Position numbers and translations under genes: made by a program. A stretch of 64,000 nucleotides of DNA from positions 343,294,001 through 343,358,000 of the forward strand of contig OZ024740.1 of assembly GCA_964016885.1 (NCBI GenBank), in the 5' to 3' direction. Shown in pieces: positions 7,234-13,134 of this stretch. Numbering within the stretch: the first letter of the stretch is position 1; every line of letters starts with the position of its first letter. The notes below the pieces were generated by a model. That model ran no database searches. It saw only the letters and a list, made by a program, of their open reading frames with translations, and was not told where the DNA came from. Origin of the DNA: Eledone cirrhosa (taxonomy: Eukaryota).

Positions 7234-9069
7234 ATGGCGGAAAAGATGGCAGACATGTCTGCCATTAGCTCTGCCACGCCCCCCAAGTCTGAAGAACAAA
7301 AAATAATTACAACAAAATTAGACATTGAAACAAACAAACAAAATGAAAAAACAAATGTTAAGGAAAATGAGCAAACAGAAAACAAACAAACAGAAAATAA
7401 TACAAATAACGACAGGGCAACTTTCGCCCAGAAAACAAAGCAATCCATTACATACACACCAATTGACCTAACTGCCGCCAGAGAAAAACTGGCCGAAGCA
7501 AAGAAACATATTGTTTTGGGGGAAAACGGAATGTTTTCCATTAACTCCCCCCCAGAATTCAAGAAAGCCAGAGCAGAAAACACAGTTATATACAGAACTA
7601 TACTAAACCAGTCAAGAAAGCCAGCACAGCCCAGCCAAATGGAAATAGAGTTAGTCCTAAAAGACTATATGAAGAATATTCTCTTCATACGAAAGGACCG
7701 ACTCTATGGCAGCATTTCGGTCCTAACAAGAGACAAAGAAACGGCGGTTCAGCTTTCCCTAAGCCCACTCTCGTCGACAACATATAGCTTCTATCCCTCC
7801 TACATGGGTAGAAGAACTCAGAGAATAAAAGTAAAAACAATGCTGCCCACAATGGACTTCTGGTGGGCTATTGCTGGCTTCATTGATATGGGCGAAGACA
7901 CTATGCTGTCAATGGGGAAGGCAACTGGAGATGCGTTCCTGGGAATGGGCCTCGACATACTAGTCCAAATGAGGCCCGAAAGAATAGCACAAATCCCGGA
8001 TCGCATCTGGCTGGATGACCTTACCCCAATAGACATAATTGTAGAGGGGAGAAGACCAGCATGCTATTTATGCATGGAAAGGGGACACGTTAAGGCTAAC
8101 TGCCCGAAACGTATCCCCCAAAAAGGACTATTGCCCACACCCACCACAAACAGTACACCAGCACCACCCACCTCCAAAAATACACTAATACCACACACAG
8201 CAAACAAAATACAGACACCACCAACCACAAACACAACACAAACATCACCACCACCAGCACCAAACACAAGCACGACACAAAAATCACCACCACCAACCAC
8301 AACACAAACATCACCACCACCATTACCAACCACAAGCACGACACAAACATTACCACCACCACCACCACAAAACCCATTCCAAACAAATAATAAAAAAAAC
8401 AGTAACAAATCTACCCCTCCCGCAAAAAAAAAACAACCACACAACACGTCCCTCCCACCTAGCGCTGAAGAGTTTCCCCCAACTTCTGAAGAAGAAGGAG
8501 GAGAAGCCTTCAGACAAGTTAAAAGAAAAAAAAGAAAACACACACCCAGCACACCACAAATAACCCACACACAAACACCAACTCCAATCAAAAACACCCC
8601 ACCCTCAACAAACAAAAATAAATCTGCGCCTCCCCTCTCCGAAACATTGACAGCATCACAAAAAAAGACGTTGCAATACACATATATAAATAAAGAAAAC
8701 AAAAAACTGGTTAAATTAATAAACAATAACCCTATGGTGCAGACCGAAGGGCCAAACTTTATCTCAACAGAGAACTTCACCCATTTAAAAATGATAAAGG
8801 TCCCTCTGGACCTTTATCGTTCCTTAAAAGAACAATTTAGACGGGACGTGAGCCCCCCCTGTTTAAAACCGTTGAATCGCGTCCTCTTGAAAGATTTCCC
8901 CATAACCGCCCCTCTCCCTGACACAACTCCAAATACCCCAACCCCACCACACACGTGTACCCCCACACCACCACAAAACATCCCTCCACCCAACACACCT
9001 GATGCCATGGAAATTACGCAACCCGGAGAGGTAAGTGCTTTTCTTTCTTCACTTTCAACACCAAAATAG
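7234..9069 (+). CDS. LINE ORF1 protein (gag-like CCHC zinc knuckle, Pro/Thr-rich linker)
   Basis: Open frame 7207-9069 with first ATG at 7234; CYLCMERGHVKANC knuckle; VEGRRP motif shared with family B ORF1. Confidence 0.9.
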   Translation: MAEKMADMSAISSATPPKSEEQKIITTKLDIETNKQNEKTNVKENEQTENKQTENNTNNDRATFAQKTKQSITYTPIDLTAAREKLAEAKKHIVLGENGMFSINSPPEFKKARAENTVIYRTILNQSRKPAQPSQMEIELVLKDYMKNILFIRKDRLYGSISVLTRDKETAVQLSLSPLSSTTYSFYPSYMGRRTQRIKVKTMLPTMDFWWAIAGFIDMGEDTMLSMGKATGDAFLGMGLDILVQMRPERIAQIPDRIWLDDLTPIDIIVEGRRPACYLCMERGHVKANCPKRIPQKGLLPTPTTNSTPAPPTSKNTLIPHTANKIQTPPTTNTTQTSPPPAPNTSTTQKSPPPTTTQTSPPPLPTTSTTQTLPPPPPQNPFQTNNKKNSNKSTPPAKKKQPHNTSLPPSAEEFPPTSEEEGGEAFRQVKRKKRKHTPSTPQITHTQTPTPIKNTPPSTNKNKSAPPLSETLTASQKKTLQYTYINKENKKLVKLINNNPMVQTEGPNFISTENFTHLKMIKVPLDLYRSLKEQFRRDVSPPCLKPLNRVLLKDFPITAPLPDTTPNTPTPPHTCTPTPPQNIPPPNTPDAMEITQPGEVSAFLSSLSTPK

Positions 9070-12000
9070 ATCAATTGAGAGTTGGCTGTTTGAACGCGCG
9101 TGGCCTGAGCTCAGCTTGGAAGCAAGCAAAGCTTCTAAGTGACCTCAGGTCACAAAGTATAGATGTGATGGTTGTTTGCGAGAGTCGGATCAGCAGCGTG
9201 AGACAGCTGGCGCCCGCCTTCGATGACTTTGAGATGCACGCATCTCTCTGTCAACCCGGAGGCGGGGGGGGAGTTGCCGTACTGCTGGATAAACGTCTGA
9301 CTCTCGACGTACAGATTGTTCACTCGGACCCGGGGGGTCGATTACTGGTGCTGGACGTCGGAGGTGGTGAAGGCGGGGCTTTCAGACTGGTCGGTCTTTA
9401 TGCTCCCTTCGGGGCGGAGAGAGCCGACTTCTTCCAACGTCTGGAGACTTTTCTAGGAACGTCGCGTTCCCTGCTTTTAGTGGGGGACTGGAATGGAATC
9501 CTAGATGCGCGTTGGGACTATGCAGGGGCATGTCCCGATAGAGGGGGGTGTAGCAGCCTCAAGGGGTTACTCGATCGATTCGACCTGGTCGATAGATTTC
9601 GACTAGATTGTCCAACTGCGCCAACCTGGACCTGGGCAAACCGCAGTGGACAATCTAGATCGTACCTAGATAGGTTTTTGGTTAGGAGTAAGGATAGGGA
9701 CGTATTTAGTTGTCCAGAACTGATCATGGTTGGCTATTCAGATCACAAATTAGTGACCTGCGTGGTCAACCTTGATAGAACGCATAGACAGGGTCCCGGT
9801 TACTGGAAGATGAACTTGTCCTTACCGACAAAGAAAGATTACAGAAACCGGATTAGTAGCTTAGTTAAGATGCGGTTGACGGGAGCGATCGTCAACAGCA
9901 GGTGGTGGGTATCTCTAAAGAGAGAGATTAGAGTAAGTTCGATAGGTTACAGTAAGGAACTAGCGGCAAATAGAAATAGGAGGGAAAGGGAGTTAACAGA
10001 TAAACTAGAAGAGGCGATTAGGAGCGGAGACGTAGCCAGAGTGTTAGCGACGAGAACGGCATTGAGCCAGTTCTTTGACGCGAAGCACGAAGGCTGCGTT
10101 GTCCGAAGTAAAATACGTGCTTTAGGAAACGAGGGGACCAAAGCTGTTAGCTGGGCCCGCGTGACAGAAGCCAAGAGTGGGATTAAATCCACCATTCGGT
10201 CTTTGCGAGACCAGGATGGACGGGTGATCCTTGAACCTGAGCGAATGTGCGAGACCTTTCAAAGGCACTTTGCTCGACTGTTCGGAGGTGGCGGGGGGCC
10301 GGACGGGGATGTGGACTTCGGTCCATACCTCGACGGTCTACCGCGTCTTTCGAGCGGCGAAGCGGAGTGCTGCGAAGGGCCAATCACAGCCACTGAAATC
10401 GGGGAAGCGCTCAGCCAATACAGCAGACGCAAATCCCCGGGTCTCGATGGTCTACCATACGAACTTTATTTAGCTATGCCGGTCTTGTTCTCCGAACTCC
10501 TCGAGGCTGTCTATTGCAACTGGCAACAGAACGGGAGAATTCCCTGTTCTGTGACCAAGGGCGTGGTCACGCTAGTGAGGAAGGACGAGAGCAAGGGGGA
10601 CGACTTAAGTAACTTTAGGCCCATAACTCTGCTGAATGCAGAGTTACAGATTTTGGCCAAGGTGTTGACGAAGAGGTTGGCGCTTGTGGTGGGTGGTTTG
10701 GTGGGAGACGCGCAGACATGCGCTATCCCGTCCAGGTCCATTCACGACAACCTCCACCTCATGCGATACATCATAGAGAGGGTTGGCTACGAACCCGGCT
10801 TTGGTGGGGCCCTGATCAACTTGGATCAATCTAAGGCGTTCGATAGGGTCGACCATGGTTACCTGGATGCGGTGCTAGCGGCGGCGGGCTTCGGACCCGT
10901 TTTCAGGGGCTGGATTTCTGCCATGCACAGTGGCAACATCTACTCTAGGATTAAAGTAAACGGCTACCTCTCGGAGCCGTTTCAAATCACCCGATCCATC
11001 AGACAGGGGTGCCCCCTCTCCTCCCTTCTGTACGTATTGACTCTCGAGCCACTGCTGCGGAAGTTGGAGTTGCTGCGGGGCATACCCCTGGAACCGGGAT
11101 TGCACAAAGCGGTCTCGGCCTATGCCGACGACGTAACAGTAATGGTGGCGGACGCCTCGGAAATCGGGGCGATCGCCACCCTACTGGAGGAATACGAAAG
11201 GCTGACGGGGGCTAAGCTGAACCAGGACAAGTCGGTCGGTTTGCAACTCGGAACGTGGAGGGGCAAACCGATGCCGTTGGACGGTGTCGTCGGGCGGTGG
11301 ACGGAGGGCCCGGTGAAGCTGCTCGGGGTCTGGTTCGGACCGGACCTCCAGGTGGAGAAGAATTGGGGCGAGGTGACGAGCAGGGTGTTTGCGCTGACCC
11401 AGAAGTGGGCCAAGTGCAAACTATCACTGAAAGGTCGGGCGGAGGTGACGAACGCTTACATAGCGTCCGTCATCTACTACCGCCTGACCGTCGTGCCTTG
11501 CCCCAAGGAAATGCTCACCATCATGGAACGCATGCTCTTCCAGTTCCTCTGGAAGAAGCGGCCTCCCATGGTGAGGAGATCCATCTGCTGCCAGCACCCT
11601 TCGAAAGGAGGGCTGGGTATGCCGTGGCTGTTGATGCGTAGGCACGCATTGAGGCTACGGCATCTACAGGTATTCCTCAACGGTCAGCCGGTGTGGGCCC
11701 CGTTTGTGAGGCGAGCCTTCCCACAGCTCGTCTCGCTCACCGAACTGCAATCCTGGGTGAAGCAAAGACCGAGAAAACTGGGCAACTGGCACACTGAGTG
11801 TGCCCAGGCGCTCACGGCTATCTGGCAAGCGGACCCGACTGTCAGTGGAGAATCCACCTCGACATTCTATAGAGGGTTGGTGGCTAGCAGGGGCGACGAC
11901 ACCCTTGGAGAGTCGCTAGGCATGGAGGAGGACGAACTGGCCAGCCTGTTCGGTAGAACTTTCGGCCCGGGACCCATGGACAACTTCCAGAGGTCCCTAG

Positions 12001-12503: not shown

Positions 12504-13134
12504 GTGAAGAAGTGAAGAGGAAAGGGGGAGCGCCTCCTCTCTGGGCTTCCCCCGCGAAAAGAGTTGCACACTTTTCGGGGGTATGTGCAATCCCCAACAC
12601 GCCCCCTCCCTTTTGAGGACTTTTTATTGTTATATTATTATTGTTATTCCTTTTTTCTTTACTCGATTTATGTAAACTCCCCCACTGTGTAAATGTCCCC
12701 TTCTTTTGTGCCCTCGTGGCAAATAAATAGAAATTTATCTATCTATCTATCTATCTATCTAACTATTACTCTCTCTCTCTCTGACACACACACACTCTCT
12801 CTCTCTCTGACGCCCCTCTCTCTCTCTGTCTCTAGCTGTCTTTATCTCTCTTTGTCTCGTTATAGTAAAAATCAATCTCAGAATTAAAAAAAAGAACAGA
12901 AAATACAAAAAAGCATCCAGAAATATAGCTGGATGTTATTATTGGAGTAAAATAATATGAGATGATTCTGGAAATATTTAAAATTCTCTGGAATCTATGA
13001 ATATCTAATACAACGAAATATTATGAGTATATACTTGTATTTGTATCTATTTCCTTTAAAAAAATATTCCTAGGTTAGTTTGTATCCATTATTTGTATAT
13101 TTGTAGATGTTACAGCCATGAATATTGCGTCATA

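Follow-up and report, generated by a model that had tools for sequence, protein, structure and literature searches.

The window analysed here is a 64,000-nucleotide (nt) stretch of contig OZ024740.1 of Eledone cirrhosa. It holds a full-length L1/Tx1-type long interspersed nuclear element (LINE), here termed family A, with a 5' splice-site consensus at the junction of its two open reading frames (ORFs). To judge by its conservation in related families, this donor is a real, clade-wide cis element and not a chance match. The elements of the clade also carry a candidate acceptor at the end of ORF2. It is likely, by a modest balance of the sequence evidence, that the clade splices part of its RNA from the donor late in ORF1 to the acceptor at the ORF2 end; the product would be an ORF1-only mRNA in the manner of copia. 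The features of the element, and of two related copies in the window, are as follows.

7016..7031, plus strand: 5' flank, (TATC)n target, also in 4/4 other copies
7032..12735, plus strand: full-length L1/Tx1-type LINE of family A, same ends in 4/4 other copies
7234..9069, plus strand: ORF1, 611 amino acids, A/C-rich (A 0.40, G 0.15), with five AATAAA
8062..8103, plus strand: CCHC zinc knuckle of the ORF1 protein (ORF1p), CX2CX4HX4C, from the sequence
9029..9036, plus strand: 5' splice-site consensus AG/GTAAGT, from conservation across families
9031..12503, plus strand: predicted 3,473-nt intron covering all of ORF2
9037..9065, plus strand: pyrimidine-rich spacer, 69-83% pyrimidine in 20/20 families
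9066..9069, plus strand: ATAG, non-AUG start of ORF2 (ATA 9066-9068) overlapping the ORF1 stop (TAG 9067-9069)
9066..12503, plus strand: ORF2 with apurinic/apyrimidinic (AP) endonuclease, reverse transcriptase and putative C-terminal zinc-binding region, from domain matches
9100..9153, plus strand: conserved stem-loop in the endonuclease coding region, stem 9100-9109/9144-9153, from folding and covariation
12480..12503, plus strand: candidate 3' splice site, pyrimidine tract and TAG (the ORF2 stop)
12504..12533, plus strand: predicted 3' exon with purine-rich start and in-phase stop TGA 12513-12515
12722..12727, plus strand: poly(A)-type signal AATAAA, from the sequence
12736..12760, plus strand: (TATC)n tail or target, from the sequence
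15520..15880, minus strand: 5'-truncated copy of a third family, ORF2 end and 3' untranslated region (3'UTR)
60508..60515, minus strand: donor motif of a second, divergent and broken copy (family B), in phase 2 and overlapping the ORF1 stop

Conservation of the donor

The donor GAG/GTAAGT at 9030/9031, in phase 0 of ORF1, had been proposed in a first-pass annotation of the window and was confirmed; 12 sense codons and the stop remain after it. Among the 11 GTRAG sites of the element it is the single AG/GTAAGT, and the family-A donor has 353 exact genomic copies. Base composition shifts sharply at this point, from A 0.40 and G 0.15 in ORF1 (7234-9030) to A 0.23 and G 0.31 in ORF2 (9031-12503), where GGG runs are three times as common.

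For comparison, 100 genomic regions picked for diversity, together with the two copies of the window, gave 105 motif-anchored copies, which were sorted by hand into 20 families; the tree and identities cover the first 65. ORF2 identity among the families is 61-87% (50-64% for L065). The donor was sought in the 70 nt preceding ORF2 as a match of at least 7/8 to AG/GTRRGT. It was present in 20/20 families and 98/105 copies, against 12 of 1,160 control windows, and lies 25-52 nt from the ORF2 start. By family, the letters are A (20) at -2, G (20) at -1, G (19) at +1, T (20) at +2, A (18) or G (2) at +3, A (17) or G (3) at +4, G (19) at +5 and T (20) at +6. Conservation is confined to -2 to +6 and the flanks are variable; A-to-G changes occur solely at +3 and +4, and there are two further single departures. 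Positions -2 to +6 are the window that pairs with U1, and A-to-G changes at +3 and +4 are tolerated by U1 wobble pairing. The donor conforms to the 5' splice-site consensus of U2 spliceosomal introns. The donor lies mostly in phase 2 of ORF1, in phase 1 in four families and in phase 0 in A and L163, and six families keep the motif although its triplet is out of the ORF1 frame. Distant L1/Tx1 relatives from metagenome contigs (21-30% identity) retain the junction region in 13 of 44 cases, and among these 13 AG/GT was found in none and G/GTRRG in one.

Acceptor and predicted 3' exon

The ORF2 stop TAG (12501-12503) had been put forward as the acceptor, and it does have a pyrimidine tract on its 5' side and GTGAAGAAGTGAAGAGG on its 3' side. 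Reading the sequence across the predicted junction likewise gives an ORF1 that ends in VKK and the stop TGA at 12513-12515, as first described. The family-A acceptor has 657 exact genomic copies. On a crude score of our own it ranks second (3 tied) among the 259 AGs of ORF2 and 3'UTR, and the ORF2-end acceptor is in the top 10 in 14/20 families. Scored across families, as first suggested, the donor is kept in 20/20 and the acceptor is weak in 6/20.

ORF2 ends in CTG TAG G in most families and in TAA in family B, which lacks an AG at the stop. Many phase-2 families have an AG that precedes the end of the ORF2 stop by 7 nt and would join in frame to the last two codons of ORF2; it is absent from the phase-0 and phase-1 families, except in a single deleted L083 copy. 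In most phase-2 families this AG appears the likelier acceptor. The 30 nt past the ORF2 stop are purine-rich (0.87 in family A, mean 0.78 in the 20 families, against 0.54 in ORF2), and exonic enhancers of the GAAGAA type are likewise purine-rich (PMC10901741). RNA folding around the acceptor is not significant (z-score -1.35). Support for the acceptor is moderate, below that for the donor. In the family-B 3'UTR (window 56896-56930, minus strand), a strong pyrimidine tract and CAG stand 159 nt past the ORF2 stop; the CAG is conserved in 7/7 B-type ends, is TAG in L193, and may be a replacement acceptor.

Stops in the donor phase

For each family the acceptor was taken as the first non-GAG AG past a conserved Gly codon, and a stop was counted if it followed within at most 3 sense codons. 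Such a stop was found in the donor phase in 16/20 families against 12/40 wrong phases (permutation p=0.002), in 15/20 against 13/40 (p=0.012) with stricter phase calls, and in 10/20 against 10/40 (p=0.031) for the site right after the ORF2 stop only, all of which p-values are overstated because about four independent phase changes underlie them, the families not being independent, and because the acceptor rule and the 3-codon cut-off were set after inspection of the data. The stricter rerun was made because single copies of the L174 and L083 representatives showed a different phase. At the site right after the ORF2 stop, the families outside phase 2 gave 6/7 against 3/14. Per copy the figures are 48/56 against 35/112, the remaining 49 copies having no readable phase or end. 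Two internal acceptor-like control sites gave phase-matched stops in 2/20 and 5/20 families, and the 3'UTR background for a phase stop is 0.09.

In the phase-0 and phase-1 families the stop lies within 1-3 codons past TAG in the donor phase. One 3'UTR position has exchanged TAA for TGA, stop for stop, between two phase-1 families, and in a phase-0 subfamily (L163, L167, L180) the phase-1 TAG is gone and the phase-0 TAA remains. A splice to the end of ORF2 gains support from these phase-matched stops. The earlier proposal that splicing would excise all of ORF2 stands as to the clade-wide donor and these stops; as to the exact acceptor it does not carry over to most phase-2 families, with their likelier AG 7 nt upstream, or to family B.

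Besides the overstated p-values, several results weigh against such a splice. Families B, L065 and L042 follow the pattern of phase stops solely if a GAG, rare as an acceptor, is used; L076 and the L083 copy depart from it; and the phase-2 matches reuse the stop of ORF2 itself and are near-trivial. Acceptors are weak in B, L065, L042, V25, L076 and L040 (ranks 16-56 of about 260). At the ORF2 end conservation of four-fold sites is not raised (rank 34 of 94 windows), there is no pyrimidine bias (rank 39 of 94), and a branch point (YUNAY, 18-40 nt upstream of the acceptor) was not evident by eye. Three other conserved acceptor-like sites, near -3023, -1597 and -253, score equal to the end site. 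The genome searches described next belong here too: no copy joining ORF1 to the 3'UTR was found at the junctions searched, which left aside those of the L040/L060/L071/L163 clade, V25, L054, the L031 type at TAG and B at AAG, and a spliced copy would need merely about 250 nt of reverse transcription. In zebrafish, ORF2p of stringent LINEs works in trans on its 3' tail (PMC4176376); if ORF2p did so here, the missing junction copies would weigh strongly.

Genomic copies and cis preference

HAL1 elements express ORF1 without ORF2. That the present LINE spawns ORF1-only, non-autonomous copies of this kind, as the first-pass annotation had suggested, is not supported, the predicted junction being absent in genome-wide junction searches. 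The first and third searches gave 0 matches each. A search with 4 matches returned point mutants having ORF2 upstream in every case; one with 12 (reversed control 5) contained no true junction; one with 3 returned two unspliced copies missing one base and one unrelated sequence; and one with 5 returned unspliced copies with a mutated donor. An ORF1 protein search aimed at a spliced C-terminus had no match. Internal deletions of ORF2 numbered 11, in 10 of 11 compared copies, and none had GT..AG ends as aligned. At the junctions searched, no genomic copy with ORF1 joined to the 3'UTR, the mark of the HAL1 type, was found, and the element is not of that type.

Changes that disable ORF2 are seldom shared between copies (5 shared against 140 synonymous; 90 private against 318; p=1.7e-8; 61 copies, six families), and three of the five shared ones sit in one poly-G run. 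RNAs unable to make ORF2p are therefore rarely copied, as is also the case under the cis preference of human L1 (PMC5860796). Such a preference, by which ORF2-dead copies almost never spread, would account for the missing spliced retrocopies, so that the searches remove the idea of HAL1-like offspring and leave the predicted splice unaffected.

ORF2 start and hairpin

ATAG is found in 30/30 and 6/6 family-A copies, the window copy being in both sets, and 87/99 other copies have ATG where family A has ATA. Shared variants in family-A ORF2 are 30 synonymous and 20 non-synonymous (expected synonymous share 0.24-0.34), and the ratio of non-synonymous to synonymous substitution rates is 0.26-0.36 within A and 0.15-0.21 to sister families; by these measures ORF2 of family A is still under purifying selection. 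An ATA start in so active a family may represent a natural non-AUG start of ORF2 or a -1 slip on the A run before UAG; inspection by eye found no canonical -1 slippery heptamer at the ORF1 end.

The stem-loop lies 35 nt past the ORF2 start (fold z-score -3.6 in the window copy), and its region has a z-score below -3 in 17/20 families. Pairing is kept in 96.5% of cells, and 2 of the 10 pairs show double-sided changes, 6 in all; pairing and covariation score both exceed all 500 shuffles and all slid controls, a figure inflated by relatedness. One other 65-nt window among 52 in ORF2 folds equally well. Elsewhere in ORF2, codon windows about 477-560 and 885-920 past the endonuclease motif have a four-fold identity of 85-92% against a mean of 64%, which may reflect further RNA constraint or exchange between families.

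Proposed mechanism

A mechanism built on the observed motifs, phases, stops, hairpin and rare spread of ORF2-dead copies would run as follows. U1 would bind the donor where ORF1 ends, and splicing would stay partial owing to the weakness of the acceptor at the ORF2 end. The spliced RNA would be an ORF1-only mRNA encoding an ORF1p with a nearly native C-terminus; ORF1p would thereby be in excess and ORF2p reduced, a parallel to the Gag of copia. The unspliced RNA would yield ORF2p by termination-reinitiation, aided by the pyrimidine spacer and the hairpin and from AUA in family A. With ORF2p acting in cis, it would also be the sole template for new genomic copies.

The cis element is conserved and the splice itself probable. 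Chances are about even for the fuller picture, in which ORF2 would be a built-in, partly spliced 3.5-kb intron, a compact junction (donor, pyrimidine spacer, start codon and hairpin) would switch the RNA between the fates of ORF1-only mRNA and of reinitiating, replicating RNA, the 3'UTR stop would track the donor phase, and an active family would use AUA.

Alternative explanations

U1 small nuclear ribonucleoprotein may bind the donor with no splice at the ORF2 end, blocking premature polyadenylation in the A-rich ORF1 or controlling RNA stability or nuclear export; the acceptor-like end would then follow incidentally from the inherited stop context CTG TAG G. This would fit a donor conserved far better than the acceptor, the failure to find spliced copies in the genome, and the five AATAAA of family-A ORF1, the closest of which precedes the donor by about 310 nt; a splicing-independent role of U1 has been shown for EVD (PMC5580714). 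It does not predict the phase-matched 3'UTR stops, and such protection would often have little target, since ORF2 has no AATAAA in 15/20 families and 6/20 have none in the kilobase preceding the donor. On balance we regard this explanation, the foremost of the alternatives, as unlikely.

The motif could instead be a translation signal, in which AGG-stop-GT, pyrimidine spacer and hairpin serve termination-reinitiation at ORF2 and the likeness to a donor is incidental. The phase-2 variants are exactly G-TAA-GT, G-TAG-GT and G-TGA-GT, motif and hairpin form one module, and ORF2 translation in SART1 needs downstream structure (PMC5972666). The proposal is nevertheless improbable: the motif is intact in the six families whose triplet is out of the ORF1 frame, and a stop codon leaves positions -2 to +1 and +5/+6 unexplained.

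It is also quite improbable that the donor splices elsewhere, whether to a near AG (an intron of 25-52 nt giving an ORF1-ORF2 fusion), to acceptors within ORF2, or to exons of the host or of neighbouring copies. The first AG of ORF2 is in frame for fusion in most phase-2 families, the three acceptor-like sites named above match the end site in score, and family B has its strong CAG in the 3'UTR. A fusion RNA would, however, still code for the enzyme and serve as a template in cis, yet 98/105 copies retain the unspliced donor; fusion copies were absent from the results of the searches for A and B; in family A the first motif of the endonuclease is not preceded by an in-frame AG; and the internal sites show no phase-matched stops. 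The short fusion intron was rejected. Neutral inheritance of both motifs from the clade ancestor is very improbable, for although all families share one ancestor and distant relatives lack the donor, eight positions were held while flanks, spacer length (25-52 nt) and frame changed.

Classification and comparison with known systems

ORF2, whose open frame spans 9003-12503, matches PF03372 and PF00078. It aligns with L1 ORF2p at E=3e-49 (residues 6-855) and with R2 at E=2.5e-23. At the C-terminus zf-RVT scores 25.1 bits in family A (cut-off 27.5) and 34.9 bits in the family-B copy. A Pfam scan of ORF1 gave no match; its Atlas look-alikes (0.90-0.93) bear zf-CCHC. A CCHC zinc knuckle in ORF1 is a feature of the Tx1 group. 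By domains and target, in a comparison that returned no named Tx1 element, the LINE is assigned to the target-specific Tx1 type of the L1 clade; the named matches are unannotated cephalopod proteins of Argonauta (68%) and Acanthosepion (52%). An endonuclease motif search found 13,647 copies of the clade in the genome. Family A is very young, with a junction identical over 351 nt in 40/40 scored copies (857 candidates), and is a recently very active element. Family B ends on (ATT)n, as against the (TATC)n flanks of family A.

With the Tx1 group the element shares the AP endonuclease and reverse transcriptase of ORF2, followed by a putative zinc-binding region, the knuckle of ORF1 and target-specific insertion (PMC3747384), and L1-Tx1 families have been recently active in Octopus vulgaris (PMC13282606). 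It differs from that group in its conserved splice site, of which no description was found there and whose donor is lacking in the distant relatives. The first-pass annotation knew of no such splice in Tx1 elements, and a literature search, made outside subscription papers, Repbase entries and supplements, found no report in Tx1 or any other LINE. The portions available of PMC7192593 (DIRS) and PMC1636488 (TART, introns in antisense RNA) do not describe one, and 'splic' had no match in PMC9115989 or PMC13282606.

The closest likeness is to copia, EVD and BARE1, in which a donor is conserved after the structural ORF and the outcome is excess structural protein (PMC5580714). The intron of Drosophila copia, of about 3 kb, spans the whole enzyme region POL, and in plant Copia elements donors are conserved and acceptor quality matters less (PMC5580714). 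In the present clade a complete structural ORF after removal of the enzyme region is predicted in 15-16 of 20 families. Copia-type elements are, however, long terminal repeat elements with one long ORF and no other control of the ratio, whereas this is a two-ORF LINE already having reinitiation, with a splice predicted from sequence. The strategy is known from another class of jumping genes.

Human L1 resembles the present LINE in having splice sites within its RNA, and the range of spliced RNAs that get copied is narrowed by cis preference (PMC5860796). In SpIREs the splices fall in the 5'UTR or between 5'UTR and ORF1, ORF2 is kept and genomic copies are left, one type amounting to about 1.8% of full-length insertions (PMC5860796); the site described here is kept throughout the clade, and its use would take out the whole of ORF2. 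SART1 and L1 translate ORF2 by reinitiation at an overlapping stop-start with RNA structure downstream (PMC5972666, PMC3894237), but family A uses AUAG without AUG, spacers in other families reach about 50 nt, and the donor motif lies in the junction. ORF1-only telomeric elements of Drosophila also express ORF1 without ORF2 (PMC13534243). Like HAL1 they are genomic non-autonomous families, whereas searches for the predicted junctions turned up no copy devoid of ORF2 in the present genome.

The excess of LINE ORF1p over ORF2p is usually ascribed to inefficient translation of ORF2. A conserved ORF2-wide intron, if real, would add a second control point, open to regulation by the host and convergent with copia. 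Such a point could serve to set the element differently in the soma than in the germline or neurons, would bear on claims of LINE activity in the cephalopod brain, and would mean that RNA-seq counts give a misleading measure of LINE expression. Even if U1 binds with no splice at the ORF2 end, a U1 site kept in thousands of copies and 20 families would be a functional element not found described for LINEs.

Other features of the clade and the window

Elements of the clade form same-strand arrays about 5.7-7 kb apart (G000:C1:4225357-4255777 and similar) and seem to insert into one another's microsatellite tails. Two copies, L041 and L182, have a 5' part of L040 type and a family-B 3' end and are chimeras or nested insertions. 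L154-L161 represent another very young family with a phase-1 donor, in which ORF2 is open over 3,360 nt in 6/9 copies.

Positions 14700-32700 of the window consist of long degenerate tri- and tetranucleotide repeat arrays with strong GC skew and spurious long ORFs. Non-LTR elements of another type, 5'-truncated, occupy 46904-48595, 54304-55374 and 55440-56705; CCHC and PD-(D/E)xK-like C-terminal motifs were recognised by eye, and we presume that they may be R4/Dong-like. Two of them stand in tandem on (AAC)n/(AAT)n repeats.

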